Positions 43,105 through 64,000 are shown, counted from the first letter of the stretch. The stretch is 64,000 bases of DNA from Candidatus Latescibacterota bacterium (GCA_965261395.1 OZ253462.1:1664001-1728000); one strand, 5' to 3'. Notes: generated by a model from the sequence alone, not told the origin. Made by a program: numbers and translations.

Positions 43105-43188
43105 TCCGTTGGGGGTGGCCCGGTAGCGGGCCTGAGATTTTAATACCCTTCGAACCTGAACTGGATCGTGCCAGCGTAGGGAAACGGA
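43105..43188 (+). ncRNA. TPP (THI-box) riboswitch
   Basis: P1 TCCGTT/AACGGA, GGGG...CTGAGA...ATACCC, GAACCTGA, TGGATCGTGCCAGCGTAGGGAA; upstream of thiamine genes. Confidence 0.93.
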
Positions 43189-43208
43189 TGTCGTACGAAC
43201 CGCGTACG

Positions 43209-43242
43209 AACCGCTGGCCCATCTTGGGCAAGCGGTTTTTTT
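43209..43242 (+). terminator. Intrinsic terminator of the riboswitch expression platform
   Basis: AACCGCT.GCCC-loop-GGGC.AGCGGTT followed by T-run. Confidence 0.8.
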
Positions 43243-43293
43243 GTGCGCCCTCGACGGAATTCTTCCGCAAATGCGAAACGAGGGAGCAGATAT

Positions 43294-45635
43294 ATGAAAA
43301 TTTCAATGCCGTTGGTCAGCTTGCTGACCGGTTTATTGACGCTGCCGGCGCTGTCCTGGGCGCAGGCCGAGGAGGTACCCGGCTTGGTGTTGGATGCGGC
43401 CACGAGTCGTCCTTGGAAGGGGCCAATGTGCAGGTCGGCAACACGGCCACTACCACCGACGCCCAAGGCCGCTTCAAGGTGGAGGCGGCTCCGGGCGACT
43501 CGCTCAACATTTCCTTTATCGGCTACCAGCGCGCACGGGTAGCGGTCGTCTTGCCGCTGGTCGTGGCCCTGGAGCGCGCGATTTTGCAAGTGCCCGAAGT
43601 GGTGGTGGAAGGCGGCTTGGTGCGCCAGCGGCTCGACCGCTTGGCCGCCAGCGTCACGGTGGTAGATGGAGATCGTTCCCGGACCAGCGGGGCCGGGCAC
43701 TTGCAGGACGCGACCCATGCGGTGCCCAATTTGAATTGGGCCGGTGGCTCGTCTCGGCCGCGCTATTTCCAGATCCGGGGCATTGGCGAGCGCAGCCATT
43801 ACGCCGGCGAAGGGCCGCCTAGTTTTTCGGTGGGATTCGTCATGGACGATGTTGACTTGAGCGGCATGGGCACGGCTGGTTTGCTCTTTGACGTCGATCA
43901 GGTCGAAGTCTTCAAAGGCCCCCAGTCAACTATTTTTGGCCCCAACGCCTTGGCCGGGCTGATCAACTTGCGCTCGGCCGATCCCCAGCAGGGGTTTGCC
44001 GGGATGGGCAGCGCCGAGATGGGCAGCGATGGGTTAGGGCGTTTTTCCGGGGCGGTGAACCTGCCGGTCGGGACCGATTTGGCGCTGCGCGTGGGGTACG
44101 AGAATGGCCGTGCCAACGGCTTTCGCAGCAACGCCTTTCTCGACGCCGACGATACCAACGGCCGCCGCGAGCAATTGCTGCGCGCCAAGGTCGGCTGGAC
44201 CCCGGCGGCTGGCCCCGAGGTGTTGGGCACCTTCTTTTGGGCCGATATGGACAATGGGTACGACGCTTGGGTGCCCGACAACAACGAGGATTTGACCACC
44301 TACTCCGACAAGCCGGGCAAGGACCGCCAACAGACGACCGGGGCCTCGCTTAAGAGCACTTGGGGGCTGGGCGCGAGCGGTGCCGAACTGGTGACAATTA
44401 CTGCGTTTTCGCGCAGCGAATTGGAGCACAGCTTCGACGGCGATTGGGGCAACGACGAGTACTGGCTGCAAGCGCCGTACAACTTCGATCCAGACGTCGA
44501 GGGATGGAACTACGACTTTTTCGACCACAATGTGCGAGACCGCACGGTTGTGAGCCAGGAGGCCCGGCTCTTGGTCGAGGAACTAGTGGTGGGAGCCTAT
44601 TGGAAGCGGCTCGAAGAAGAAGACGATGCCGCGGGCTATTTGTTCGGCGGCGACGCCACGGACCTGAACGGGCGCTACGAGATCGACAACTTGGCTTTTT
44701 ACGGTCAGTACGGGCTGGCCTTGGGCGAGGGATTGCGGCTGGAAGTCAATGCGCGGATCGACCGCAACGATACGGTTTATGAAGGAACGACGACGAATTA
44801 CGGGGCCGACAGCACCAGCACCGCTTTCGCTGTCGATCAATGGCTGGGCGGCGGCAAAGCGGCCCTCAGTTACAACTGGCGTCCGGGCCAAACCCTGTAC
44901 GCTTCGGCCTCGCGCGGTTACCGCTCCGGCGGGGTCAACCAGCACCCGTACTTGGCCGCGGAAAACCGCCCCTATGACCCCGAGTACATAGTCAATCTTG
45001 AAATCGGCTGGCGGGGCAGCGGACCGCGTTATTCCACCGGGCTTACCCTATTCCACGCCCTGCGCTCGGACCAGCAGGTCGAACTGTCGAGCCAGCAGGA
45101 TCCCGGCGACCCCAACAGCTTTTTCTACTTCACGGCCAATGCCGTCACAGGCCGCAACAGTGGCATAGAATGGGAGTCAACCGTCCTTCTCCTGCCCCAA
45201 GTCGAACTCTCCGGCTCGCTGGGTCTGCTCACTACTCACATTGATACGTACACCTTTCCCACGGAAGACGGGGAAGTAACGCTGGGCGACCGGGCCGCCG
45301 CCCACGCCCCCAACTACACCTTTAGCTTGGGCGGCGAATACCGCCATCGGTCGGGTTTGGGCGCGCGGCTGGCCCTGACCGGCATGGACCAATTCTTCTA
45401 CTCCGATGGCCACGACCAAGTCTCAGAGCCGTACCAATTGGTCAACGGTCACATCGCCTATCAGTTGGGTACATGGTCTGTGCAGTTATGGGGCCGCAAC
45501 TTGCTCGACGAACGCTATGGGGTGCGGGGCTTCTACTTTGGCTTGGAGCCGCCCGATTACGCCGACAAGCTGTACAAAACCTACGGCGATCCGCGCCAAG
45601 TCGGCGTGCGGCTGACGACGCGATTTGGAGACTAA
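43294..45635 (+). CDS. TonB-dependent receptor, probably for thiamine; 1-nt frameshift near 43411 after the signal peptide
   Basis: ATG 43294 MKISMPLV...SWAQ signal peptide in another frame joins LEGANV...; FQIRGIG, VEVFKGPQSTIFG, WGRNLLDERY; TPP riboswitch upstream. Confidence 0.85.
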
Positions 45636-46308
45636 AGCCGTGGGCGGTCAGTTCGCTTTAATCGTCGGCAACGGCGAGCCGCCTTCCCGAGAATTATTCG
45701 CCGCCTGCGCCCAAGAAGCCGAGCTGATCCTGTGCGCCGATGGCGGAGCTAATACCGCCTCGGCGTACGGGTACGTGCCCGATTACGTCGTCGGCGACCT
45801 CGATTCGGTCAGCCCCCAAAGCAAGGCCGCCCTTGCCGCCGACCGCCTCATCCTCGTTGACCCCGAAGGCGATATAGCCACGGATGGCCAGAAAGTCCTC
45901 AACCACGCTGTTGCCTTGGGCGTCACCCAAGCCGTCCTCCTCGGTTTTACGGGACGGCGCACCGACCATCTGCTGGGCAATTTGAGCCTGCTCAAGACCT
46001 TTGCCGACCGCCTCGCCTTGCGAATAGTTGACGATTACTGCGACATCCGCCTCATCGACCGCCGCATTCGCTTCCGCGCCGCCCTTGGCCAGAAAATTTC
46101 CCTGTGCCCACTCGACGGCGCGGCCGAGGGTGTTGAGACGTCTGGATTAAAGTGGCCCCTGCGGTCCGAGAGCCTCATTCCGGGCGTGCGCGGCGGCATC
46201 TCCAACGAGGTGGTGGACAACCCGGTCGAAATTCGGGTCGGGCGCGGCGATCTACTGTTGTGTGTACAGCGGGAGAGCGCGTCTGGGCAAATCGAGTTGC
46301 TGGATTAG
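45625..46308 (+). CDS. thiN: Thiamine diphosphokinase
   Basis: ILCADGGAN, PDYVVGDLDS, TD, GRRTDHLLGNL, GLKWPL, GISN. Confidence 0.93.
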   Translation: METKAVGGQFALIVGNGEPPSRELFAACAQEAELILCADGGANTASAYGYVPDYVVGDLDSVSPQSKAALAADRLILVDPEGDIATDGQKVLNHAVALGVTQAVLLGFTGRRTDHLLGNLSLLKTFADRLALRIVDDYCDIRLIDRRIRFRAALGQKISLCPLDGAAEGVETSGLKWPLRSESLIPGVRGGISNEVVDNPVEIRVGRGDLLLCVQRESASGQIELLD

Positions 46309-46320
46309 TTCCCCGACGAG

Positions 46321-47271
46321 TCAGGCCGAGCAGCTAGCGCCTCCGAGGACGCAGAACTGGGCGCAGTGGGGGTGGTTGAGCTTCACCGGGCTCCAGGCTT
46401 CGGCTAGGGTCCGGCCCATCTCAAAGGCCGCGTCGTACGGCAGCAGGGTACAGGGGAGCACGACTGGAGAATCCGCTCCCTTGCGCTTGACGACCATGCG
46501 CGACGAGGCGCACATGATGTCGTCGGGCGACTGGCCGAGAAGGTCCCAGCAGCCGGTGGTGATCTCGGGCACGTCAACGGAGGAGTTCATCTCTGGGAAG
46601 ATGATGAGCTGGCTGGGGTCGATCGCGTCAATGCGCACGCCGAGGTCGGCGAAGAGACGGGCGAAGTCAGCACGCAATTCGCTCTCTTCGTCACCCCAGA
46701 GCGTGCGGCCAGCGGCTGTTAAGCGAAAGCCGCAATCGGAGAGCCAGCGCAAGCCCTCGATCATTGGTGTCCAAGAGTGCTCGCCGCGCTCCGCCTCGTG
46801 CTGCGTCGACTCGTAGTGGTCGATGGAGACGCGGATCGTCAGCCGCTCGCCGTGCGCCTCGCGCAGCCGCAGCAGGCCGTCGGCGCACTTCATCATCGGT
46901 CGCATGGCGTTGGTCAGCACCAAGCTCTCGAAACCCCGCTCCAGCACGTCCTCAAGCATGCCGAGCATCTCGGGATTCATAAAAGGCTCGCCGCCAGTGA
47001 AGCCGATCGCGCGCGTGCCCAGCCGGTCGCGCTCGATCTCGTCGAGATAGGCGGCCACTTCTGCCGCTGTGAGGTACATTAGACGGTCGTTGCGCGGACT
47101 CGATTCGATGTAGCAGTTGGTACATTCTAGGTTGCAAAGGGTGCCGGTGTTGAACCACAAGGTTTCCAGCCGCGTCAACGCTACGCGAGCTCGCTCCTCT
47201 CCGTCGGCGGTGACGTCGGGGTCTTGGAACTTGCGTGGGTCTAGGCGGGGCGGGGCTTGCGCTTGTGTCAT
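46321..47271 (-). CDS. Radical SAM protein
   Basis: GGAGG RBS, start MTQAQ at 47271; CNLECTNC, FTGGEPF, Cys-rich C-terminus (HPHCAQFCVLGGASC). Confidence 0.9.
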   Translation of the reverse strand: MTQAQAPPRLDPRKFQDPDVTADGEERARVALTRLETLWFNTGTLCNLECTNCYIESSPRNDRLMYLTAAEVAAYLDEIERDRLGTRAIGFTGGEPFMNPEMLGMLEDVLERGFESLVLTNAMRPMMKCADGLLRLREAHGERLTIRVSIDHYESTQHEAERGEHSWTPMIEGLRWLSDCGFRLTAAGRTLWGDEESELRADFARLFADLGVRIDAIDPSQLIIFPEMNSSVDVPEITTGCWDLLGQSPDDIMCASSRMVVKRKGADSPVVLPCTLLPYDAAFEMGRTLAEAWSPVKLNHPHCAQFCVLGGASCSA

Positions 47272-47481
47272 GCTGCCTCCGGTCTGGGTCTCGTCGTCCA
47301 AGGCGACGGAGATGCGGGTGTTGACCGCTTGGGCGTCGTGCGGCTGCACAAAGAGTCGATAGCTTAATAGACTGTCAAGGTAAGCTACAGTTCTGGGAGC
47401 CGTATTTACAGGGGCTATGGGTGGAGGAGGGTTGCGGCGCGATCGTAAAGTAGAGTCTTATCTAGGGCCTCCGCGATGGCC

Positions 47482-47586
47482 TCTCCAACGAGGTGGTGGA
47501 CAACCCGGTAAATGGTGGGACGCGGCGATCTGCTGTTGTGCGTGCAGCGGCAGCGCGCGTCCGGGCAGATCGAGCCGCTGAATTAG
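47482..47586 (+). repeat. Diverged duplicate of the thiN 3' end (46199-46308)
   Basis: 28-bp identity TCTCCAACGAGGTGGTGGACAACCCGGT followed by similar sequence to the TAG. Confidence 0.9.
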
Positions 47587-48245
47587 TCGCTGTCCCAAGC
47601 CAGCGATAGTCGAACCCCAACCTGCCCGGTCCCCAGTTCCAAACGCGGGGCGACCGCCACTCCCTGCTCCTGCTTTTCGTCGCCCAACGCGAGCAACTGC
47701 CACCCAGCGAGGGCAAAGGCCGCCGCAGTCATCCAGCTCATCTGGCTTTGGGTGTCGCGGCTGTTGGCGCGGTCCAAAAAGCGCTCGGCTTCTTGCGGCG
47801 TGCTGGCCTTTTGGTAGCGCCGATAAGCGTCGTCGCCCTGCTGGCGAAAGTCCCAGCTTTTGACGAGCAGTATCGCGCTCCCGCCGCAAAGGGCCCAGCC
47901 CCAAGCGCGGCGCGACGTCATCCAGCCGCGATCTGCGCCCTTTACCGACCATGCCACCGCCCCTAAACCCATCGCCCCCATCACCACCGCCCGCGTGTCG
48001 AATCGCCGGCGCTCGTCGTAGAAGATCTGCGCGTCGCTTTTGGACTCTGCCCGCTCGTAGCGCTCGTCGGCCCGGTTGGCTTCCCGCCGCGCCTGATAGG
48101 CTTCGCTGAGCAGCCAGCCGCCGGCACCCAGCGCGATATAGCTGGCTACTTTGCGCGAGAGGCGCGGACCATCCGCTCGCGCCTCTCCGAGCGACGCCAG
48201 CGTCAGGATGCAGGCCAGTGTTAGAATGCTCCGTCTATTGTTCAC
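47583..48245 (-). CDS. Hypothetical exported/membrane protein with two internal repeats
   Basis: Signal peptide; two units of TM - (AD/DD)xYxRYxxA...A..F.D...DT - TM; start overlaps tolC stop. Confidence 0.7.
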   Translation of the reverse strand: MNNRRSILTLACILTLASLGEARADGPRLSRKVASYIALGAGGWLLSEAYQARREANRADERYERAESKSDAQIFYDERRRFDTRAVVMGAMGLGAVAWSVKGADRGWMTSRRAWGWALCGGSAILLVKSWDFRQQGDDAYRRYQKASTPQEAERFLDRANSRDTQSQMSWMTAAAFALAGWQLLALGDEKQEQGVAVAPRLELGTGQVGVRLSLAWDSD

Positions 48246-49621
48246 CGCAGGTCTCCGCGCCCTCTGTCGGCGACGGGTTTCCCCACCGCTTGGTCGAGCT
48301 GGGCTAGCTGGATGTGGTAGTTGAAAATGGCCTGGACCAAGCCGCTGCGCGCGGCAAAAAGGCTCGCTTGCGCTTGCAGCCGCTCTAGCTGCGTTCCAGT
48401 GGACAAAGCATAGCGCTCCTGCGCCAGCTTGTAGCTTTCCTCGGCAGCGCTGACCGCGATCTGGTTGGCCTCAATGCTGCGCCGATATAGCTCGATATTG
48501 AGGAAGGCTCTTTTAATATCCAGTGCCACCTGCCGCTTAGCCTGGTCGAAGTCTTCCATGCGCTGGCGGTAATTCAGCTTTTGCGACTTGATGGAATTCT
48601 GGGTGCTCAAGCGGTTGAATAACGGCAGTCCCAAGCTCACGTTGAACGAGTAGCCGTAGTTTTTCAAAAAGAGATCTTCCGGCCCCGCAAACGCCTCGTC
48701 GGCCCGCAGTCGCCAGTTGTAGCCAGTGCTCATGCTCACCGTCGGGTGCAGCAACTCGTAGCGGGTCCCGCGCAGGTCCTCCTCGGCTTGCAGCAGCAAA
48801 AACTCCTGCGACCGCAAGTCCGGGCGGTGTTCCAGCGCCAAGGCCAAGGCTTCCTCGTAGCTCAGCGCGAGCGGTACCATCGCAAATTCCTCCTCGACCG
48901 GCACAATCGGTTCGTAGGTCCGCAAGCCCATGGCAAAGGCCAAGTCGGCACCAGTCACCGCGACGCTGTTTTCGCGGTCGATTAGGTTCGCCCGTGCGCT
49001 GGCCAACGCGGCCCGCTCCGTCAGCACATCCGACAGGGGCACCGAGCGGACCTCGAAGAGCGTCTCGGCCCGGCGCAGGCTCTCCTCTGAGACCCGCACC
49101 TGCTCGGTCTGCACCTTCATCAGTTCAATAGCCTGCAATAAGCTGAAGTATCCCTGCTTGACCTCAAAGACTACTTGCTGCTGGCTCGTACTCAGGTCCA
49201 TCTCGGCCGCCTTGTGCCCCAGTTTGCTCGACGCTAGGGCGGTCCAGTTGCCGCGATTGTACAGGTTCATACTGAAGCCGGTACCCAGCGACTGCGAGCC
49301 GCTGGAGGTGCTCTCGCCGAGGGTAGAGGTGACCTCGCCGGTGGCTGGATCGACAAAGGATCCCTCGCGCGGCCCAGAGACGCTGCGCGACATCCCGTAG
49401 GAGGCGCTGATCGATGGTAGAAAGGCATTGCGAGCGTTCCCGATTTGGATCGCCGCGGCTTCGATATTGGAGCGGCCCTGGATGACCGCGGCGCTCTGCT
49501 CTAGGGCGATGGCGATGCAGTCGTCCATGCTCAAGCGGAGCGCCGCTGGCTCTGTTGCGCCGCTGGGGCGCGTCAGGATTCCCACCACCAGCCAGCAAAA
49601 AACGGTGTGTTTACTTTTCAC
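48242..49621 (-). CDS. TolC family outer-membrane channel
   Basis: GTG start overlapping upstream TGA; LSMDDCIAIALEQS, FLPSISAS, VKQGYFSL, AQERY, LDQAVG. Confidence 0.92.
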   Translation of the reverse strand: MKSKHTVFCWLVVGILTRPSGATEPAALRLSMDDCIAIALEQSAAVIQGRSNIEAAAIQIGNARNAFLPSISASYGMSRSVSGPREGSFVDPATGEVTSTLGESTSSGSQSLGTGFSMNLYNRGNWTALASSKLGHKAAEMDLSTSQQQVVFEVKQGYFSLLQAIELMKVQTEQVRVSEESLRRAETLFEVRSVPLSDVLTERAALASARANLIDRENSVAVTGADLAFAMGLRTYEPIVPVEEEFAMVPLALSYEEALALALEHRPDLRSQEFLLLQAEEDLRGTRYELLHPTVSMSTGYNWRLRADEAFAGPEDLFLKNYGYSFNVSLGLPLFNRLSTQNSIKSQKLNYRQRMEDFDQAKRQVALDIKRAFLNIELYRRSIEANQIAVSAAEESYKLAQERYALSTGTQLERLQAQASLFAARSGLVQAIFNYHIQLAQLDQAVGKPVADRGRGDLR

Positions 49622-50330
49622 GACAGCAGCCTTTCTCGCTGCGCCATCTGCCGCAGCCCCGAAAAGAGCAAGAGCGCGCCGCCGAGCACCAGCGTCGCGC
49701 GGTTGAGCGCGACCATCTCGGCCCACACGGCATGGTCCATGCCCAGCGGCAGGCTAAAGGGATTTAAAAAGAGAAAGTAAGCGGTCTCCGCCAGCGACTC
49801 GGCGCTCAGCAACACCGCGACCAGTACTCCCAGCGAAAGCATCCCGGCCGTATTGCTGCTCTTGCAGAGCACCGAAAAGAAGAAGGTCAGATTGGCGATC
49901 AGAAACGCCGGTGCGAACGCATTGAGTCCGCCCAGCGCGAACGGAAATTCGGCGAAGAGGAAATAGGCCGCCGCACTCATGCCCAGCAGGGTCGCCGCCA
50001 ATAGCAGGTAAACGGCCACCATCCGCAGCACCCAGATCCCGTAGTGCGAGGTGGAAGTGCTAAAGAGCGCCTCCAGCGTCCGACGGTCGCGCTCGCCGGA
50101 CACTAGATCCATCGCTAGGTAAATCGCCAAGACCGCGCCGGGGATCTCCACCAGCACGTAGGGGGCCTGCCCGGCGCTGAACCCCTCGTCCGGCCGGAAC
50201 ACCGCCAGTGCGTAGAGCACTCCGTAGTACGCGGCAATGCCCAAGACCATGAGCAGCAGCTTGCGGTGAAAGACGATTTGCGTGCTGAGCCGGCACTGCG
50301 TTACCAAGCTCGCAAACAGAGTGGTCCAAG

Positions 50331-50337
<7 letters not shown>
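49618..50337 (-). CDS. ABC-2 type permease
   Basis: GGAGG RBS, GTG 50337; about six TM helices; VSGERDRRTLEALFST loop. Confidence 0.8.
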
Positions 50338-55018
<4,681 letters not shown>

Positions 55019-55022
<4 letters not shown>

Positions 55023-58000
55023 CGCAGCCGCTCCACGGTCTCGTAGGCCACGGGAATGACCACCAGCGCCATCACCGTCGAGGAAACAAGCCCGCCGATC
55101 ACCGCAATCGCCATCGGTGCCCGCAAACCCGCTCCCTCGCCCAGCCCGACAGCCATCGGCGCCAGTGCCAAAATGGTGGTCGCCGTCGTCATCAGGATTG
55201 GGCGCATCCGATCCTGCGCGCCCTGCAGCACGGCCGCGCGCACCGTCGGCAACTGCGCCCGCAATTGGTTGATGCGGTCAACCAGCACGATTGAATCGTT
55301 GACCGCGATCCCGCCCAGCATGATGATGCCGATATAGGCCATCACGCTCAGTGGCTCGCCCAGCCCCCAGAAGACCCACACCACGCCCACGCCAGCCAGC
55401 GGCACGGTCAGCATCACAGTAAAGGGGTGCAGCAGCGACTCAAAGAGCGAGGCCATCACCATGTACACCAGCACCACCGAGAGCAGCAGCGCGAACTGCA
55501 AGTTGGCAAAGGACTCCTGCCGCTCGCGCTCCTCGCCGCCAATTTCGATCCGGTAGCCATCGGGCAGTTCCATCGCGCCGACGATTTGCTCGACCTGCCC
55601 GATGGCCTCGCCCAACACCGCGCCTTCGACCAGATAGCCGACCACCCGCCCGAGCCGGCGCTGGTCCTCGCGCAAAATCTCGCGCGGCCCTTCGACCAGT
55701 ATGGGATCCGACAAATCGCCCAAGGCCAGAATCGCCCCAGCCGGCGCGTCGATCCGCAACTGCGGCAGCTCGCGCAAGTCGAGGCGCTCGAAACCGACGC
55801 GGATATCGCGCGAGCGTTGGTCTTTGGACAACTCGCCGATTACCTCGCCCGACAGCCGGCGCTCCAGCGCCTGCACGATGGTCGCGACGGTCAGCCCGCT
55901 GGCGACGACCGCGTCTTCGCGCAGCCGCAGGTCGATTTCGGGCTGGCCGCCTTGGAAGTTCGAAGTGACGTTGTACACGCTTGGCAACTCCTCCAAGCGG
56001 GCAGCGAGATCGGCGCACAGGCGGCGCAACACTTCCACCTCGTCGCCGATAATCTCCACTTGGACCGGGGCCGTCCGCTCGCCCAGCACTCCTTCGAGCG
56101 CGGTCTCGTGTAGCTGGTATTGCACGTCTAGTTCGGGGATTTGCGCCAATTGCGCGTCAACCATCTCGACCAGTTGCGGCAGGCTGCGGCGCGTCTCCGG
56201 GGCCAGCGCGACCGACAGCGTGGCGCGGTTGGGTCCGGTAGGGTCGCCGATGTTGGCCAGCCGCGCCGGGTCCACGCCCGCCCGGGCGTACACTGCGGCC
56301 ACATCGTCGCCGCCTACCTCGCCGATGATCTCCCCCACCCGCTTGGCCACCCGATCGGTCAGCTCCAGCCGCGACCCTTGTGCCAGGGACAACTCCACGT
56401 GGAAAAGCCCTTGGTCTTCGCGCGGGATAAACTCGGTGGGGATTGCGCGGGCGATGTAGGCCGTGCCCGCGACCGTTGCGGCCACCAGCAACAAAACCAC
56501 TCCCTTGTGGTCGAGCACCGCGTTGAGCAAAGCGCGGAAGCGCAACCAGCGCTGCTCGGTTGTCGCCCCGCCGCGCCCGCGCAAAAAACGCGAGGTTAGC
56601 ATCGGCACGGTCATCATCGCCACCGCCAGTGACGAGACGAGCGAAAAAGCCACGGTCCAGGCTTGGTCCTTAAACAGTTCGCTGGTCAGCCCTTGCAGGT
56701 AAATAATCGGCAAGAAAACCGACACGGTCGTCAGCGTCGAGGCCATAATCGCCACCCCGACCTCGCTGGCTCCCTTGGTCGAAGCCTGGCGCGCGTCTTC
56801 GCCCCGCTCGAGGTGGCGGTAGATATTTTCAATGACCACGATCGCGTTATCGACCAGCATCCCCGCCCCTAGCGCCAAGCCGCCGAGGGTCATGATATTG
56901 AGCGTCAGATCCTCGAAATACATCAGGGTAAAGGTCGCTAGCATCGAAATCGGAATCGCCAGGCCGATCACCAAAGTCGCCGTCCACGAGCGCAAGAAAA
57001 ACAGCAATACCCCCACCGCCAACACCGCCCCGTGCAACGCCGCCTCTTCGACTTCGGCTACGGCCTCCTCGATAAAGCGCGCTTGGTTTTCAACCACCGC
57101 AAAGCGCAACTCGGGCAAGTCTTGGTCGAGCTCGCCGATGGATTCGAGCACCCGGTCGATGACCTGTACCGTATTGCTACCGGCCTCTTTGTAGATCGCC
57201 AAGCCGATGCACTCGACTCCGTCGAGCCGCACGATGGTTTCCCGTTCCTCGTACTCCAACGCCACCTCCCCCACATCGCGCACGTACACCGGCACCTGCA
57301 ACCCCTCCTCCACGCCTTCCCCCTGCCGCGCCCCGACGATCACATTGCGCACATCCTCCAAGTCTGCCAGCCGCCCTAGCCCCTTGACTTGGTACGATTG
57401 CTGTGCCTCGCGCAAGGTCCCCCCAGACACGTCCTCATTGGCCGAGGTGATCGCCGCGATGACTTGGTCGGCGTCCTGCCCGAAGGCTTCGAGCAGATAC
57501 GGATCCAACGTCACCCGGATTTCTTTTTCTGCATCCCCTTCAATGTCTGCCGAGGCCACCCCATTGAGCGCTTCGAGCTTGGGCTTGACCACGGTCTCGA
57601 CCGCGCCCAACAGCTCGTCGAGGTCGGCCAGCCCGGTCGCCGAGACCGCGATCCGCATCACCGGCAGCGCCTGCGGATCCTCCTGAATGACATCGAGCGT
57701 TTCAATGTCTTCGTCGGTGGCGTACCCCCCCATCTTTTTTTGCACGTCGATCAGGGCAAAATCCATATCCGCTTCCCAATCGAACTCGGCCACCACCACA
57801 GACTGCCCTGAGCGGGTGATCGAATAGACCCGAGCGACTCCGCTGATCGTGCTAATGTCGCGCTCCAGCCGCCGCGTATATTGCTCTTCCACCTCCTGCG
57901 GTGCCTTGCCGGGCACCTGCAAGTCAACCGTGATGACCGGCGTGTGCATGTTGGGCAGCAGGTCGGTTCCCAGTTTGCTTAGGGAGATCGCCCCCAACAG

Positions 58001-58066
58001 CGCCACTGCTAGGGTCAGCATCAGCACGGTGACGGGATAGCGGATGGAAAATTCAGGTAGCGACAT
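55019..58066 (-). CDS. RND (AcrB-like) permease subunit
   Basis: MSLPEFSIRYPVTV, GMLVDNAIVVIENI, YMVMASLFES, RMRPILMT, AVIGGL. Confidence 0.95.
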
Positions 58067-58076
58067 GATGCGCGTA

Positions 58077-59174
58077 CTATCTCCCCGGCCTGCCCCGACC
58101 ACCCGGCCTCGCAGCCTCTCCCGCCCCGGTCACGCTGACCCGCGTCCGCGACCGCAGGGTCTCGTAATTGCTCGTAATCAATCGCTCCCCTTCCTCCACG
58201 CCGCGCAGCACCTCCGCGAATGTTGCGTCTTCTAGCCCGATCTCGATCTCCCGCATCTGCGCCCGGGCGCTTTCTTCGACGAATACCACCTTGCGATTCC
58301 TCCTCACTAGCACCAACTCGCGCGGCACCAGCACCGCGTCGGCGTGCGACTCGACCACGATCTCGGCCTTGACGAACATCCCCGGCCGCAGCAAGTGCTC
58401 GGGGTTATCTATCGTCGCCACGGCGCGAAAGGTGCGCGTCGCGGCATCCACCACCGGGTCAACGGCTGAGATGTGGCCGACGAATACCTCGTCCGGGTAG
58501 GAGTAATCAACCGCCCGCACGGGCTGATCCAGCGCGATGTGGCGGATTTGCGAGTTGGGAATCTGCAAGTCGAGCAGCACCTTGCTGTAAGCGACAATGC
58601 GGCAGATCGGCGTGCCGGCCTCGACCAGCGTCTGCTCGCTGGCATCGGTGAACTCGCTGAGTACCCCAGCAATCGGGGCGATGATTGCGGTCTTGCCGAT
58701 CTGGACCAAGGCGTCGTCGTAGTCCGACTGCGCGTCGGCCAAATCCTTGCGCGCCGCTTCGACATCGAACTGGGTCACCAAGCCGCGCTCGACCAATACT
58801 TCTTGTTCGGCAAGGGTTTGGCGCGCGTTCTGCACGGCCAGCTTGCGCGCTACCAGCCGGGCACCGACCATCAGTTCCTCGTTGTCGAGGCGGGCGAGGA
58901 CTTGCCCCTGTTGCACGGCCATCCCCTCGGTCGGCTTGCGCCCGTCGCCTAGTTGGACCAGCGACAAAAACCCCCGCGTCTCGGTTACTACCACTGCTTC
59001 CTGTATCGGCCGCAGCGTCCCCGTGGAGGTCACCACCGACTCGATGGTCCCCAACCCCACCGGCTGCACGGTGACCGGGACCGTCAAATCGGCTGTCTGC
59101 TGAACGGTCTCGCTTTCGCAGCCGACTAGCAACAGGAGCGCCCACGCCGAGGCGCATAGAATTGTATGTCGCAT
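58077..59174 (-). CDS. RND periplasmic adaptor (MFP), lipoprotein
   Basis: Lipobox LLVGC; VQQGQVLARLD, IIAPIAG, VDAATRTF, LRPGMFV. Confidence 0.93.
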   Translation of the reverse strand: MRHTILCASAWALLLLVGCESETVQQTADLTVPVTVQPVGLGTIESVVTSTGTLRPIQEAVVVTETRGFLSLVQLGDGRKPTEGMAVQQGQVLARLDNEELMVGARLVARKLAVQNARQTLAEQEVLVERGLVTQFDVEAARKDLADAQSDYDDALVQIGKTAIIAPIAGVLSEFTDASEQTLVEAGTPICRIVAYSKVLLDLQIPNSQIRHIALDQPVRAVDYSYPDEVFVGHISAVDPVVDAATRTFRAVATIDNPEHLLRPGMFVKAEIVVESHADAVLVPRELVLVRRNRKVVFVEESARAQMREIEIGLEDATFAEVLRGVEEGERLITSNYETLRSRTRVSVTGAGEAARPGGRGRPGR

Positions 59175-59189
59175 GTTTTCCTCAGAGCA

Positions 59190-59214
59190 GGGCAAGCACA
59201 AGGGTTGTCCCTAC
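59190..59214 (-). repeat. GTAG-type REP-like palindrome
   Basis: Minus strand GTAGGGACAACCCTTGTGCTTGCCC: GTAG tetranucleotide + imperfect hairpin. Confidence 0.6.
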
Positions 59215-59248
59215 AAGATTTGTTGGTATAGATGTACGCGGATAGGAC

Positions 59249-62200
59249 TCAAAATACCCTGTTCAGCCAACGGGTAAGAGCGCTCGGTTGCGACCGCTCG
59301 CCACCGCGGCCGCGCCAATTGCCAAAAGACCCCACGTCTTCCTCGTAGGCCGCTTCCGGCTTGTCTGGGTCAACCCAGCGCCAGCGCACGGCATCGGCGT
59401 AGAGTTGGCCGCTGGCTTGGTCGGACAGTTCGACCGAGGCTTGCTCGCCGCCGGCAAAGTGAAACCGTCCCAGCAAGTTCCAGCCGCCCGTGAGCGCCTC
59501 GCTCTTGAGCGCCAGCGTATCGACCTCACCGCCATGCGCCACGGCGAGCGAAAACGATTCGGCCAAGTTCAAGCCAAAGCGCCGACTAAACTGCGACGGC
59601 ACGAAATAGTACGCCACGTCGTAATCGCCGTCCTTAGGTAGCGTCGCCGTCCACACCGCTGGCTGTGCCCCGTCTCCGGGCTGCTTCCAGCGGAAATTGG
59701 TCTCGTAGCGACCGAAGGCAAGGGGCAGCTCCTGCACCTGCCAGTTGTCGCCTTTAAGCCCGGGCCGCAGATAGCGTTGCACCCGGCGGATCGGCATGGA
59801 AAAGCCCTCGTCGTCGTTATCGACTACGATCTCCGAGAAAAAGTTTTCCTCGTCATCGACGACCCGCACATAGGACTTGGGATAGCCGGCGAAGACCTTT
59901 TCGGGGATGCTCAAGGCCGCGACAATCGGCCGCTGGTTTTTGGCCAGAAACGGCTCGACCATCACCCGGAATGGCCGCGCAAAGAGCACCATGGACACCT
60001 CGACCTCCTGCCCGCCCTCAATGGCGATGGCCTTGGCGGCTTGGTCCTCGCGCCCAAGGGCTTGCACTTCGACAAAACCTCGGCCCGGCTCGCCGTTTTT
60101 GACCCGCACGATCACTTGGTACACCACTTCGCCCCAGCCGTCGTCCATCTTCTTGGCCGTCGCTCGGGTCAGGGTATAGCCCGGCACGTGGGTCCCGTAA
60201 ATCCAGTCGTGGACGAGCTGCTGCACGTCGATTTGCTGGCTACCGACTTCCCCATCGGGGACGACGGCCGCCTCAAAATCGGCAAAGGAGACCTGCTGGT
60301 ACTTGTTGTTCTCGTCAAAGGTGCCGATCGCTTCGATGAACCTGTCGGCTCCCACCACTGACTTGATTACCCGGAAAATGGACAGGCTCTTGGCCTTGAG
60401 GATCGCCCGGTAGAGGCTGGGTTCGGCGTCCTTATCCATCTTTGCCAGCGAGTTCTGCTGCATCTCTACCACTAGCGTGTCCCAGACCGGGCCGGTGTTG
60501 GCGGCGGACTGACGAGTCCCGCCGGGGCCGCCACCCCGCGCGCGCATCATGCTGCCGATCATCCGCGCCATCCCGCCGCCCATCCGGCCACCCCAGCGCC
60601 CCGAAAACATCGCCACTCGCAAGTCGGCGCTGACGTCTTCCTGCATGTAGAGCGGCAACCCGCGCGCGACTAGATCGGCGTGCTCGCCGCCGAAGCCGCG
60701 GTCGAAGGACCATAGCTGCACCAGCGGGCTGCGAAACAGGCCGCTGCGCTCTCCTTCGGGACTGAGAAAATCCTGGAAGACCGCCCCGACCAGCACGTCC
60801 TTTTTTATTTGCGCCTCGTCTTGGTTGCCACGCCGCCGCGCCACCCGCGCCTTGAAGTCGCGCTGGAAGCGGTGGCCCATCAACACGTCTTCCTCGATCA
60901 TCAGCACCCCCGGCTGCACGAGGCCGCCGCGTTCCTCCCAGCCTTCGTAGTACCACTGCACCAGAAAGGGTACCTCCACCAGCGACAGCCTCGGATACGG
61001 GTATCGCAGCCCGGTCTCCTGCTCCATCGCGTCGAAAAGCTGGTCGATGGTCTCGATGACTTTGTCGGCAGCGTCGGCGAAAAAGTGCACCGGGCGCAGG
61101 TGGGCCGGGTGGACGTAGAAAGCGAAGTCAACCTCGCGGACCGTGGCCTCGTACACTTCGTAGCGGCCGGCATTTAGCGAGAGCAGGGGCACCGGATACT
61201 CGACCTGCCACTGCGTGCGGACGCGTTCGCCTTGCGGCTCTTTGGCCACCGGCTGCCCTTGGGTGATCACCTCTAAGCCAGCGGGTACCGACACCGCAAT
61301 TTCCGCGGTGGCGAACGAAGGGGGCGGCGGTGCTTGTGGGTGATAAGCTACCCCGGCGATGGGGTACCAGCCGCTGCGCGGGGGTAAGAAGACGGATTCG
61401 TCGCGGATCCAGGCCGTCAGGTCGCCCTTGATAAAGGGCCATTTGTTCTTGCGCAGCCGCGTCTCGTCGCGCAGCAGGTCAAAGCCTTGGCGATCGATGT
61501 CGCCGTCGTAGGTCAGCGTCAACGTTCGCTCGGCACCGGCCGCCATGGGCGCGGCGACCCGGATCACGGCCGCGCCCCGCGTCCACGCCACCGCATGGCC
61601 CGCTGCATCTTGCACCGAGCGCAGCGTCAAGCCGGGGTTGAGCGCAAAAGTCAGCGTGTCCAGTGCGCCGTCGTGGTAGTTGTACAGCCGCAGCTCGGCC
61701 TTGGCCACAAGCGGTGCAGCTTCGCCGACCAACGCGACTTCTAACTCGTAGTGCTCCACCTGCGGTGCGGGCGCGTCTGCGTAGCGATAGTGCTCGGCGA
61801 GCAGGCGCTGGCGATAGGCTTGGTTGGCTTGGTCCTGCGCGTCGATGTGCTGATACAGCCCCACCGCCGCCAACAGCCCGCCCCCGGCCATCCCCCGCCC
61901 GACCCAAACCCATCTCACCGACTGGGACAGGCGCGGATAAAGCTCAATCGACAGGCCAAAAAGGAACAGCCCCAGAGATAAATAAAATAGCCGCTGGTCA
62001 ATCACCCGCGCTAGGTCGCCCACGCCGATTATGTCCGAGTAGAACAGCGGGGCGAAAAAGGCACCAAAGTCCCACAAGCCGCCGTGGGTCTCGCCGAGGT
62101 AAAACAGCACGGCGAGCGCGTAGGCCATCGTCAGTAGAGCGACGGCCGTCTGGTGCCGCAAGAGTGCCCCTAAAAAGAAGGTCAAGGCCGACATGTACAG

Positions 62201-62680
62201 CAGAGCTGGCAGGGTCATCACCAGCAGGTACAGCAGATAGGGCCGGAGCGTGAAGGGTGCGTCGAGTAGGCTGATCTTGGCCGCTTGGATGGCCACCGTC
62301 AAAACCAGCACCACCAAGCTCAAAGTCAGCAGGGCACCGACGACCCCTAGGTACTTGCCGATGACCAGCTCGGCCGTCGCGATCGGCCGCCCGGCGATCA
62401 CCTCGTGGACCCCGGCCCGCTCGTCCGCGGCGCGGAAGTCGCCGACGATAAAGGCGATCACCATCGCCTGCACGTAGCTATAGACGTAAAAGGGGACAAA
62501 TGCCCCCATGCCCAGCGCCGAGCTGAATTCCATCCCCTGGGCCTCTAGCACCGATAGGCCGATGCCAATCAGCAGCGGCAGCGCGATCCCAATGCCGCCA
62601 AGGATGCGGAAGCGGGTGGTCCGCAAGAGCAGCATCCGCTCGTAGCGGGCCACGCCGAGGATGTTGTGGACGGCGCGCAT
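59249..62680 (-). CDS. ABC-2 permease fused to an M1-aminopeptidase-like domain (no HEXXH) and a C-terminal golvesin/xanthan-lyase CBM-like domain
   Basis: N-terminal TM bundle (ELVIGKYLG); HYELEV, WYP, YPYPRLSLVEVP, DWIYGTHVPGY; C-terminal IVVDNDD...GWNLLGRFHF...ADAVRW. Confidence 0.8.
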   Translation of the reverse strand: MRAVHNILGVARYERMLLLRTTRFRILGGIGIALPLLIGIGLSVLEAQGMEFSSALGMGAFVPFYVYSYVQAMVIAFIVGDFRAADERAGVHEVIAGRPIATAELVIGKYLGVVGALLTLSLVVLVLTVAIQAAKISLLDAPFTLRPYLLYLLVMTLPALLYMSALTFFLGALLRHQTAVALLTMAYALAVLFYLGETHGGLWDFGAFFAPLFYSDIIGVGDLARVIDQRLFYLSLGLFLFGLSIELYPRLSQSVRWVWVGRGMAGGGLLAAVGLYQHIDAQDQANQAYRQRLLAEHYRYADAPAPQVEHYELEVALVGEAAPLVAKAELRLYNYHDGALDTLTFALNPGLTLRSVQDAAGHAVAWTRGAAVIRVAAPMAAGAERTLTLTYDGDIDRQGFDLLRDETRLRKNKWPFIKGDLTAWIRDESVFLPPRSGWYPIAGVAYHPQAPPPPSFATAEIAVSVPAGLEVITQGQPVAKEPQGERVRTQWQVEYPVPLLSLNAGRYEVYEATVREVDFAFYVHPAHLRPVHFFADAADKVIETIDQLFDAMEQETGLRYPYPRLSLVEVPFLVQWYYEGWEERGGLVQPGVLMIEEDVLMGHRFQRDFKARVARRRGNQDEAQIKKDVLVGAVFQDFLSPEGERSGLFRSPLVQLWSFDRGFGGEHADLVARGLPLYMQEDVSADLRVAMFSGRWGGRMGGGMARMIGSMMRARGGGPGGTRQSAANTGPVWDTLVVEMQQNSLAKMDKDAEPSLYRAILKAKSLSIFRVIKSVVGADRFIEAIGTFDENNKYQQVSFADFEAAVVPDGEVGSQQIDVQQLVHDWIYGTHVPGYTLTRATAKKMDDGWGEVVYQVIVRVKNGEPGRGFVEVQALGREDQAAKAIAIEGGQEVEVSMVLFARPFRVMVEPFLAKNQRPIVAALSIPEKVFAGYPKSYVRVVDDEENFFSEIVVDNDDEGFSMPIRRVQRYLRPGLKGDNWQVQELPLAFGRYETNFRWKQPGDGAQPAVWTATLPKDGDYDVAYYFVPSQFSRRFGLNLAESFSLAVAHGGEVDTLALKSEALTGGWNLLGRFHFAGGEQASVELSDQASGQLYADAVRWRWVDPDKPEAAYEEDVGSFGNWRGRGGERSQPSALTRWLNRVF

Positions 62681-62685
62681 GGCGT

Positions 62686-63558
62686 TCAGGCCGATCCCAT
62701 AAAATAGATATAGGCGTCTTCGAGATTGGGCGCGGTCGGCACGGCACTCGGCGGCGGGGCCGCGTCGCCGACGAGCCTGAGCGCCATGCCGCCGCCGTCG
62801 GCACTGATAGTGACCACGTTAAAGCGGTCGGCGATGGCTTCAAACCCTGCGTCGTCCGTCTGCAAAAGCCAAGTTTTGCCCTCGGCCTTGGCGACGAAGT
62901 CCGCCGGCGCACCGTGGAAGCGCAACCGCCCCTGATGCAATACGGCTAGGTCCTCGCAGGTGCTCGAAATATCGCCGACGATGTGGGTCGAGATGAGAAT
63001 GGTGCGGCTGGCGCTCAGCTTCCCCAAGATGGCCCGGAAGCGGATTCGCTCCTCTGGGTCCAGCCCGACGGTCGGCTCATCGACGATGATGAACTCAGGA
63101 TCGGCCAAAATCACCTGCGCGATGCCAAGCCGCCGCCGCATCCCCCCCGAAAAGGTGCCCGTCTTGCGCTCGCACACCTCGTAGAGACCCACGTCCTCTA
63201 AGGCTTGGGCGATCCGTTCTCGGCGCTGCCGCTGGTCGTGCAAGCCGCCGAGCCGCCCCATGTAGTCGAGGAATTCCCAAGCCGAAAGCTGCGGGTAGGC
63301 ACCAAAGTGCTGCGGCAAGTAGCCGAGTCGCCGCCGCACTTGGGCGCAGTCCCGCTGGAGGTCCCAGCCGTTGATCTCCACCGCACCCGTGCTGGGTGCC
63401 ATCTGGGTGGAGAGAATTTTGATCAGCGTGGTCTTACCCGCGCCGTTGGGTCCTAAGAGACCAAACGTCCCGTGGCGGATCTCCAAGTTCAGGTCGGAAA
63501 GCGCCGGAACACCACCGCGACCGTAGGTCTTGCTCAGGTTTTGGATGCGTATTCTCAA
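62686..63558 (-). CDS. ABC transporter ATP-binding protein (ABC-2/DRA-like)
   Basis: GPNGAGKTT, FSGGMRRR, IIVDEPT, STH, PNLEDAY. Confidence 0.95.
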   Translation of the reverse strand: MRIRIQNLSKTYGRGGVPALSDLNLEIRHGTFGLLGPNGAGKTTLIKILSTQMAPSTGAVEINGWDLQRDCAQVRRRLGYLPQHFGAYPQLSAWEFLDYMGRLGGLHDQRQRRERIAQALEDVGLYEVCERKTGTFSGGMRRRLGIAQVILADPEFIIVDEPTVGLDPEERIRFRAILGKLSASRTILISTHIVGDISSTCEDLAVLHQGRLRFHGAPADFVAKAEGKTWLLQTDDAGFEAIADRFNVVTISADGGGMALRLVGDAAPPPSAVPTAPNLEDAYIYFMGSA

Positions 63559-64000
63559 AAGCCGCCGCCGTCGCCGCCGCCACCACCGCGGGGACCACCA
63601 CCGCCGCGGGGACCGCCCCGGCCGCCGAAGTTCCTGCGGCGCTCTTGCTGCTCTTGCATATGCGTTTTCAGCACCTCGATCTGCTCTTCGCTGAGGGTCT
63701 CGGTAAGTGCCGTCATAATCTTGCCCCGTATCTCTATTTGCTTCTCGCGCAGGGTCTCGCGCAGGGCCCGGAAATCGCCTTCGCCGCTGAACAGCTCACT
63801 CATCATCTGCTGCCGCTCTGTGTAGAGTGGCTTGAGGCTGCCCCGCAGCGCGAGCAGTTGCTCGTCGGTCACGTTGAATTTCTCCTCAAAGGCCAGCAGA
63901 CCGAAAATCTGGTCCGGCGACATGCCACCACCGCCGCCGCGACCACTCCCGCGACCACTGCCGCCCGGCTGTGCCTCAAGCGACAAAATGCTCAACAGAC
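63555..64000 (-). CDS. Gly/Arg-rich exported helical protein, Spy/CpxP-like (5' partial)
   Basis: Frame open to window edge; signal-peptide tail SLEA-QP; VTDEQ and LSEEQ (LTxxQ-like) motifs. Confidence 0.6.
   Translation of the reverse strand, partial: LLSILSLEAQPGGSGRGSGRGGGGGMSPDQIFGLLAFEEKFNVTDEQLLALRGSLKPLYTERQQMMSELFSGEGDFRALRETLREKQIEIRGKIMTALTETLSEEQIEVLKTHMQEQQERRRNFGGRGGPRGGGGPRGGGGGDGGGF

Follow-up and report, generated by a model that had tools for sequence, protein, structure and literature searches.

Here, we describe an operon in a 64,000-nucleotide (nt) stretch of DNA (the window), namely bases 1664001-1728000 of OZ253462.1, the single-contig 6.55-Mb genome of a Candidatus Latescibacterota bacterium (GCA_965261395.1). 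Its central gene encodes a resistance-nodulation-division (RND) permease and an adenosine triphosphate (ATP)-binding cassette (ABC) ATPase in one polypeptide, which we call RND2::NBD2 (NBD, nucleotide-binding domain), and this fusion is real and not an assembly error. We propose, with a probability of about 0.6, that the locus specifies a conserved, composite system for export through the diderm envelope, in which two classes of transporter that usually belong to different pumps are joined. That the architecture is real and widespread is well supported; its parts come from known superfamilies, and their assembly matches no described pump type.

The operon comprises nine consecutive open reading frames (ORFs) on the minus strand, from 47583 to just past 64000, most of them joined by 4-nt start/stop overlaps, and the ORF list and junctions bore out the preliminary description in this respect. 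In the 5'-3' direction, the genes encode a Spy-like protein, the stand-alone ATPase NBD1, a first permease (perm1), a membrane fusion protein (MFP), RND1, RND2::NBD2, a second permease (perm2), an OMF (outer membrane factor), and p220, a protein of 220 aa. The nearest named protein relatives carry the source labels Candidatus Latescibacterota (79% identity) and "Gemmatimonadetes" (75%).

The RND2::NBD2 fusion and its conserved gene set

In the fusion protein of 1563 aa, residues 4-1027 matched Pfam ACR_tran (633 bits) and residues 1291-1431 matched ABC_tran (97 bits). In the window, the RND2 body (residues 1-1030) is encoded at 51933-55022, transmembrane helices (TM) 13-14 and the first β-strand of NBD2 (residues ~1031-1117) at 51672-51932, a membrane insertion of ~165 aa between strands β1 and β2 of NBD2 at 51171-51671, and the rest of NBD2, from Walker A to a C-terminal extension and the stop codon, at 50331-51170. 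A search of 41 related genomes with the junction (residues 1001-1563, covering the RND end, the linker, and the ATPase) yielded full-length matches in 20, lying in open frames of ~1575-1700 aa and distributed as 7 of 25 in the genus (own genome counted) and 12 of 12, 1 of 1, and 0 of 3 in three other families.

A lost stop codon or a frameshift arising in assembly or sequencing might have joined two adjacent genes, and a few features would agree with such an origin, namely one in-frame stop in each of three of the 20 junction matches (G023, G016, and G014), all of them draft assemblies, a broken frame in one nanopore-type metagenome-assembled genome (MAG; L036), and the draft metagenomic character of such assemblies. 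Against this, a continuous frame of 1565-1604 aa was present in 23 of the 24 loci examined, L036 being the other one; the same unbroken frame occurs in closed genomes and in isolates of several phyla, and the linker is kept at the protein level. PF00873 and PF00005 occur together in every one of the best 120 matches among 5.8 billion proteins, the lengths of which are mostly 1486-1646 aa. Because the frame recurs across phyla and both domains are present in all of these 120 matches, an artefact can be dismissed as vanishingly improbable. The covalent RND-ABC tether claimed in the preliminary description thus stands, carried by continuous fusion frames across phyla. The source labels of the 120 matches are Latescibacterota, Gemmatimonadota, Acidobacteriota, KSB1, and Calditrichaeota, and their names are generic ("efflux RND transporter permease subunit," "ATP-binding cassette domain-containing protein"). 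A contig of run X1, which may derive from the source sample, spans 50084-52561 with 2 differences. Longer frames of 1700-2600 aa, which would suggest RND1-RND2 or NBD2-perm2 fusions, were also seen and rejected; eight loci show the neighbours in other frames, and the long frames are explained by stop-free overlap in G+C-rich DNA.

Past helix 12 of the RND body, the sequence continues with two hydrophobic helices, a positively charged stretch, and a short strand with the motif I-R-L-Q-T-L-T-K-I-Y-G, which resembles the first strand of NBD1 (I-R-I-Q-N-L-S-K-T-Y-G) and in which K1112 and Y1114 are invariant among 28 sequences from three phyla. This strand is followed by the insertion, consisting of one amphipathic cytoplasmic helix and four hydrophobic helices, and only then by the second strand and Walker A. 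An AlphaFold model of the linker and NBD2, built on a 28-row alignment (mean pLDDT 78.6), predicted helices at model residues 3-61 and 65-98, a β-strand at 104-114, and insertion helices at 119-136, 144-167, 171-197, 199-221, and 224-248. Its best match in VIA was 4yer_B (Z 27.4, rmsd 3.7, 264 residues aligned), in a match list made up of ATPase domains alone that barely cover residues 1-98 and the insertion. Whole solved NBDs span model residues ~101 to ~557 and align over ~230-264 residues, from which it follows that they skip the insertion. NBD2 is an intact ATPase in which a membrane insertion of four helices parts β1 from the remaining domain, and alignments confirmed that the insertion is conserved across phyla. 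Since the number of helices is even and the charges follow a positive-inside pattern, both read from the sequence, NBD2 is predicted to lie on the cytoplasmic side.

The linker has few relatives. Searched alone against 1.84 billion proteins, its 261 aa matched 40 representative clusters (E up to 0.001), and the 14 full-length ones are all fused proteins of 1559-1590 aa with the linker at ~1017-1303. Four short representatives were read, of which two are fragments that still carry RND ends and one looks chimeric. The fourth, P0157 (526 aa), begins with a Met within the first linker helix and continues with the insertion and the ATPase; it may be either an unfused linker-ATPase or a mis-called gene fragment.

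A scan of one genome per species gave 80 loci, and the linker region was found in 26. Fusion carriers belong to Latescibacterota and Bacteroidota and include a Zixibacteria MAG; among them are the cultured Draconibacterium mangrovi, Labilibacter sediminis, Parabacteroides massiliensis, and Marivirga tractuosa. Three more loci (L033, L042, and L047) have an RND2 gene, and in L033 and L042 the ATPase is present as well.

The preliminary description had asked for a search for joint occurrence of the fused RND-NBD, the permease with its M1-like domain, and the further permease, and these do occur together across phyla. Co-occurrence was counted by tblastn with the window proteins in the 24 linker-positive loci that reach upstream, and the order, which is constant in far-reaching loci, is NBD1, perm1, OMF, MFP, RND1, RND2::NBD2, and perm2. 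RND1 and MFP precede the fusion in all 24 loci; perm1 is present in 23, and the remaining contig ends before it. NBD1 was found in 20, the other four stretches ending before its position. An OMF gene lies between perm1 and MFP in 24 of 24, a set with Bacteroidota, Zixibacteria, and other loci (16 detected by tblastn, 8 by Pfam OEP). The perm2 gene follows the fusion in 24 of 26 loci, and in L023 a 240-aa ORF that the search did not detect occupies the perm2 position. In the class-level relatives (L102-L105), the six-gene core is present in 4/4 loci, and the OMF gene follows perm2 solely in the nearest relative. Because this gene set recurs, we define the conserved unit as NBD1, perm1, MFP, RND1, RND2::NBD2, and perm2, usually with OMF. 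The Spy-like gene (restricted to the same-genus loci L104 and L105) and p220 (restricted to the nearest relative L105, with 96% identity, and absent from L102-L104) are outside this core, as is, in most close relatives, the OMF position. Among the 25 loci in which perm2 was matched, no further flanking gene recurs in more than 3.

At L042 (5618-20929), a locus of a MAG, all seven components are present in an interleaved order, namely MFP, NBD1, perm2, RND1, perm1, RND2::NBD2, and OMF. The fusion of this locus is shorter (1438 aa, with ACR_tran at 5-1041, ABC_tran from 1159, and a linker of ~115 aa), and its perm1-like protein of 919 aa has no Golvesin_C match. A second subtype was observed in another genus of the same family (L106-L109 and L113), with RND2 29-36% and NBD2 ~55% identical to those of the window; in L106, the sole locus of this subtype reaching far enough, OMF is upstream of MFP, as in the Bacteroidota order.

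The ATPases, the permeases, and the RND pair

NBD1 (290 aa, 62686-63558; ABC_tran 108 bits) and NBD2 (ABC_tran 97 bits) both belong to the ABC_tran family with full catalytic motifs and share 46% identity over 272 residues, C-terminal extension included. In the translation of NBD1, Walker A, Q-loop, signature, Walker B-Glu, and H-loop are intact and are followed by a C-terminal extension; in the NBD2 family, GPNGAGKT, SGGM, VDEPT, and STH are invariant among 28 sequences, and so is the Q-loop. The solved sequences nearest to NBD1 are ABCA7, ABCA4, ABCA3, and ABCA1 (E ~1e-58 to 1e-62), followed by NosF (E 9e-41). Neither of the equivalogs GldA (TIGR03522) and GldF (TIGR03518) was reached, with scores of 180.4 against 402.6 for NBD1 and 21.1 against 288.5 for perm1.

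The perm1 protein (1143 aa, 59249-62680) was assigned as a putative ABC-2, type V-like permease with an M1-fold domain and a Golvesin_C module on the basis of Pfam, a structural model, and Foldseek. In the model (18-row alignment, pLDDT 74.8), an N-terminal interface helix and six membrane helices precede a seventh helix that is predicted to extend as a long stalk (252-299), past which a β-rich domain, an α/β domain, a β-sandwich, and a final β-module are predicted; the periplasmic part after the seventh TM helix would amount to ~850 aa. The final module matched Golvesin_C above the Pfam cut-off (56.5 bits), a module whose InterPro name is CBM6-CBM35-CBM36-like (PMC9166713). Two further matches were below Pfam cut-offs, ABC2_membrane_5 with 18.1 against 25 and Peptidase_M1 with 18.2 against 27.7. 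With Foldseek, residues ~300-960 matched the M1 fold of IRAP, ERAP1/2, APN, and F3 (E 7e-19 to 1e-15, ~620-700 columns, 10-14% identity, probability 1.00). HEXXH, part of the zinc site HEXXH-(18)-E, and the exopeptidase motif GxMEN were missing from perm1 and from all 19 homologues checked. Since the M1 fold was matched and these motifs are missing, the periplasmic domain of perm1 is a pseudo-peptidase, with neither a zinc site nor the motifs of active members. Relatives of perm1 in databases are named "hypothetical protein" or carry a NosY-type COG label.

The second permease, perm2 (239 aa, 49618-50337), scored 26.2 with ABC2_membrane_2, below the cut-off of 27.2, and its counterpart in L042 scored 39.6, above this cut-off. 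It aligns collinearly over 167 columns with the membrane domain of perm1 (hhalign probability 46%, E 2e-4), which suggests that perm2 is a distant paralogue of that domain. As NBD1 aligns with NBD2 and perm1 with perm2, both ATPases and both permeases can be regarded as conserved paralogous pairs. No FtsX or MacB_PCD match was obtained for perm1 or perm2 in Pfam at E up to 0.01.

RND1 (55019-58066) is a full-length permease of the hydrophobe/amphiphile efflux (HAE) type that matched ACR_tran with 770.5 bits over profile positions 3-1020 of 1021, and RND2 matched it with 633.5 bits over positions 2-1018; both have the AcrB architecture of the HAE type, with 12 TM and two periplasmic loops. They share 34% identity, and the best solved relative of RND2 is MdtB (9lyq, E 9e-85). 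Both remained below the equivalog cut-offs of MdtC and MdtB (1774 for NF007905 and 1584 for NF007798), RND1 with 387.9 and 370.3 and RND2 with 359.5 and 321.3, respectively. MdtBC is a two-gene RND that works as a B2C1 trimer (PMC7015380). By analogy, RND1 and RND2 would form a heterotrimer as well.

In AcrB, the canonical proton relay consists of an Asp-Asp pair in TM4 and a Lys in TM10. RND1 and RND2 deviate from this pattern; both have D-N in TM4, and they have N-D (RND1) or N-N (RND2) in TM10; aligned MdtB shows DD and KKN. The TM4 Asp is retained in 23 of 23 RND1 and at least 20 of 23 RND2 sequences. The DN/NN pattern was also found in the other RND paralogues of the genome in which the pattern was matched and is kept in orthologues, and for this reason we regard it as a trait of the subfamily and not as a defect or a sign of lost proton coupling in either protein. 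We considered that RND2 might have no proton relay and be driven by ATP, and rejected this candidate, DN/NN being common to the other paralogues and the RND1 orthologues. With the ATPase motifs complete and the TM4 Asp retained, both energy modules look competent at the level of sequence.

A Gly/Arg-rich periplasmic loop was observed at RND2 residues ~640-670 (window ~53040-53120), with the sequence GGGRGRTGGRGGRTGGSGG. In the region of this loop, two RNA-library contigs are without 18 nt at 53083.

Remaining genes, operon boundaries, and expression

The MFP (58077-59174) is a periplasmic adaptor with the lipoprotein signal LLVGC, and it matched TIGR01730 RND_mfp with 184.6 bits (cut-off 94.9, NCBIfam) and HlyD_D23 with 80 bits (Pfam). 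The OMF (48242-49621), a TolC-family outer-membrane channel, matched both repeats of OEP (215 bits, cut-off 22) and reached 168.7 bits with TIGR01844, under its cut-off of 225. Both partners of a tripartite pump are thus represented by family-level matches. The Spy-like secreted protein of ~161 aa (63555-64000) runs off the window, its start (MKRIRKS..., with a signal peptide) lying ~40 nt beyond base 64000. It had no Pfam match at E up to 0.01 and 0.001 and no NCBIfam match, and its feature scores of 0.86-0.88 with LTXXQ-bearing atlas clusters are a lead only. Hence, the domain names proposed beforehand were upheld by Pfam or NCBIfam for all other proteins, and the Spy-like assignment was not. 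In the Gly-rich C-terminal tail of this protein (63567-63604, 63568-63594), contigs from RNA libraries and related strains show in-frame length differences of 15-36 nt. The last gene, p220 (47583-48245), encodes a secreted or membrane protein that is translationally coupled to OMF; it had no Pfam or NCBIfam match, and the atlas yielded unnamed clusters only.

The junctions are tight along most of the operon. The stop of the Spy-like gene overlaps the TTG of NBD1 (63558) by 4 nt, NBD1 ends at 62686 and the ATG of perm1 follows at 62680 (gap 5 nt), and perm1 ends at 59249 with the ATG of MFP at 59174 (gap ~74 nt). MFP ends at 58077 and RND1 starts with the ATG at 58066 or the GTG at 58102, the gap being ~10 nt with the ATG. 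The RND1 stop overlaps the GTG of RND2 (55022) by 4 nt; the fusion stops at 50331 with a 7-nt overlap with the GTG of perm2 (50337), ahead of which there is an AGGAGG. Overlaps of 4 nt likewise join the perm2 stop to the GTG of OMF (49621) and the OMF stop to the GTG of p220 (48245). The operon was counted as nine genes because the next gene upstream is on the opposite strand. Downstream, p220 is followed by a gap of 234 nt and then by a radical-SAM gene, which was sought in the class-level relatives and found in the nearest one (L105) alone. When 46000-48400 was scanned for promoters and terminators, the minus strand past p220 yielded none, and the single promoter-like site lies within the radical-SAM gene, so the end of the operon is set solely by the 234-nt gap and by conservation.

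Four runs, all of assembled contigs, were searched for signs of expression; such contigs give neither transcript ends nor expression levels. Contigs from three metatranscriptome libraries of two studies cover 28, 23, and 17 of 30 operon bins at 90-99% likeness, and they bridge the MFP/RND1, NBD1/perm1, and Spy/NBD1 junctions as well as the boundary between the insertion and NBD2. Bins that are not covered carry no information. The many apparent contig joints either have a side shorter than 30 letters or stem from other ABC genes at the Walker A peak (50806-51356).

Beyond the operon, the region 43188-47349 on its downstream side encodes a TonB-dependent receptor (815 aa) and a thiamin pyrophosphokinase (227 aa) on the plus strand and the radical-SAM protein (342 aa) on the minus strand. 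At ~4.3-13.9 kb past the right end of the window, a 3211-aa ORF (L009:5294-14929, minus strand) has at least 8 Calx-beta domains (together 485 bits), also matches a fibronectin type-III family, and ends in a repeat-free C-terminal region.

Proposed coupling of the two modules and relation to known pumps

Reviews class tripartite pumps by a single energising transporter, which is an ABC, RND, or MFS protein (PMC8277102), and terms for an RND-ABC fusion do not occur in the first 300,000 characters of this text. Exact-word searches of open-access full texts, with subscription literature, TCDB, and supplements outside their range, found no description of an RND-ABC fusion and no published account of the architecture, which agrees with its preliminary designation as a candidate for an undescribed system. 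Several known systems share parts with it. In MdtABC-TolC and MuxABC-OpmB, too, two paralogous RND genes of the HAE type lie side by side and are accompanied by one MFP and an OMF, and MdtC and MdtB were among the top NCBIfam matches of RND1 and RND2, far under the cut-off; compared with MdtABC, one RND of the present operon has six further predicted helices and an ABC ATPase, and four ABC genes belong to the operon. MacAB-TolC likewise combines an ABC ATPase with an MFP and an OMF, and the NBD of MacB could be aligned to the model of NBD2 (5nik_J: Z 23.1, rmsd 3.0, 214 aligned; VIA). However, MacB is a type VII ABC that forms a homodimer, has an FtsX-type permease, and works with no RND, whereas the present operon has ABC-2-like permeases and an RND pair.

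With type V exporters (ABCA1/3/4/7 and NosDFY), the ABC module shares a large extracytoplasmic domain, the C-terminal extension of the NBDs, and the sequence closeness of NBD1. It differs from them in its ectodomain, which is an M1 fold with a CBM-like module instead of the ABCA extracellular domain (ECD) or NosD, and in one of its NBDs, which continues the chain of an RND and is interrupted by a membrane insertion. The multi-domain fold of perm1 is common to M1 aminopeptidases (IRAP, ERAP1/2, APN/PepN, and tricorn factor F3), but perm1 has no HEXXH or GxMEN and is anchored to an ABC permease. An ABC permease with an M1 domain also occurs in Aquimarina brevivitae (L080, 9950-14415), where a 289-aa ATPase with 38% identity to NBD1 lies beside a 1190-aa membrane protein that ends in an M1 domain; in contrast to perm1, this protein has an intact HEIAH (HEIAHQW) zinc motif, and its first ~560 residues contain, as read by eye, ~12 TM helices, more than perm1. 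Tblastn with the window proteins found no RND, MFP, or OMF genes around it. Such proteins presumably correspond to the family label "ABC permease fused to M1 aminopeptidase in Flavobacteriia," which we take to be from NCBI annotation, and, to our knowledge, the Aquimarina-type ABC-M1 unit is uncharacterised. In Paenibacillus sp. (L090, 10004-16303), an NBD1-like ATPase accompanies a 727-aa relative of perm1 (hhalign probability 98%, E 4e-14), and this locus may represent a monoderm relative of the ABC module. The 727-aa protein consists of the membrane domain and the first β-domain, and the locus also has a 232-aa permease, an ECF sigma factor-like ORF, a membrane ORF, and a second ATPase. The comparison of the 232-aa permease with perm2 gave an hhalign probability of 5% and no support.

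How the two modules might work together can be outlined in a plausible model. RND1 and RND2 would assemble as a heterotrimer as in MdtB2C, so that a 2:1 trimer would present one NBD2, paired with NBD1, and perm1 and perm2 would form the heterodimeric membrane part of one type V-like ABC. Using ATP, this ABC module would extract or flip a substrate from the cytoplasm or the inner membrane into the periplasmic M1-like cavity, and the tethered proton-driven RND trimer would take the substrate and expel it through MFP and OMF. Candidate cargoes are amphipathic peptides, glycoconjugates, and lipid-linked molecules, as hinted at by the cavity of the pseudo-peptidase, by the CBM-like module, and by ATPases that resemble those of ABCA and NosF. 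In its strongest form, the model describes a single dual-energy tripartite machine with an RND1(2):RND2(1) trimer, one tethered NBD2, and mechanical coupling of ATP and proton energy, an arrangement that is possible and that we put forward tentatively. Here, the one NBD2 per trimer would recruit NBD1, perm1, and perm2, which would resolve the mismatch between three-fold and two-fold symmetry; the heterodimeric ABC would dock on the RND trimer, and coupling would run through the 18-helix RND2::NBD2 protomer and the intramembrane insertion of the NBD.

Of the multimer prediction called for in the preliminary description, the part made covered perm2 against linker-NBD2 with the perm1 transmembrane domain. 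It gave a score of 0.53 with a best control of 0.00, weak support for contact among these ABC parts. The runs agreed in at least 82% of contacts, and partner pLDDT was at least 74. Of 80 solved complexes, 58 reached the mark used, as did 2 of 110 mismatches; with scores of 0.60 or under, only 7 of these 80 complexes reached it, and so did both passing mismatches. As ABC permease-ATPase complexes have already been solved, the pass may reflect likeness only. Together with the paralogous pairs, this weak score suggests that NBD1, NBD2, perm1, and perm2 may make up a single heterodimeric ABC, as claimed earlier.

Several observations weigh against the composite system and, in particular, against its coupling. 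Contact between the ABC and RND parts is known from the peptide bond alone, and the fusion could serve co-localisation or stoichiometric expression only, because each module has full motifs. The RND stoichiometry is taken from MdtB2C by analogy, and a 1:2 trimer would give two NBD2, permitting two separate homodimeric ABCs. The linker is patchy; within the phylum it was found in 83 of 168 genomes, among them 6 of 30 further genomes from the genus and 29/31, 19/22, and 13/13 from three other families, with none in several families, from which it follows that the system is accessory. The OMF is outside the locus in the closer relatives L102-L104, and the RNA-library contigs may hold DNA and stem from strains that are 90-99% alike, so they are a hint only.

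These points lead to the question of whether the operon encodes two separate pumps, an ABC-2 exporter and an MdtBC-like RND-MFP-OMF pump, acting in sequence or on different substrates and fused only for co-expression or co-localisation, with no mechanical coupling. Complete catalytic motifs in both modules would suit this explanation; according to PMC4338810, inner-membrane transporters cooperate with tripartite pumps without physical linkage, and relatives of perm1 are found with an NBD and without any RND in the Paenibacillus locus and, with an intact peptidase site, in Aquimarina. Plain co-expression, however, leaves the conserved membrane insertion of NBD2 unexplained, the fusion persists across phyla together with its particular linker, every full-length cluster among the 40 linker clusters is fused, and the gene set is intact even in the shuffled order of L042, so that we consider two independent pumps rather unlikely. 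The ABC module could also be a mechanotransducer like MacB, LolCDE, or FtsEX and not carry cargo across the inner membrane; ATP hydrolysis would then move the M1-like/CBM domain of perm1, or the RND2 protomer via the insertion, and this motion would load, gate, or regulate the RND pump or extract a molecule from the outer leaflet. The very large periplasmic domain of perm1 on its long stalk helix (252-299 in the model), an M1 fold without a catalytic site, an insertion that in the model puts four helices in or at the membrane beside RND2, and the nature of the nearest solved ATPases, which are ABCA lipid extractors and NosF, whose complex serves a periplasmic partner, are all consistent with such a role. 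Yet no FtsX/MacB-type domain was found by Pfam in either permease, and both match ABC-2 models, if weakly; we consider this explanation unlikely.

Returning to the composite export system, a conserved covalent RND-ABC hybrid would, if true, add a class of pump that uses both ATP and the proton gradient and brings its own paralogous ATPase/permease pair and a pseudo-peptidase periplasmic domain. It would show that an ABC ATPase domain tolerates a membrane insertion in its first hairpin, and it could be a natural system for studying the hand-over of inner-membrane export to an RND pump. The question is directly testable, since cultured, tractable Bacteroidota carry the system, including gut Parabacteroides. 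If the dual-energy model is true, this would be the first pump to unite primary and secondary active transport in one assembly.

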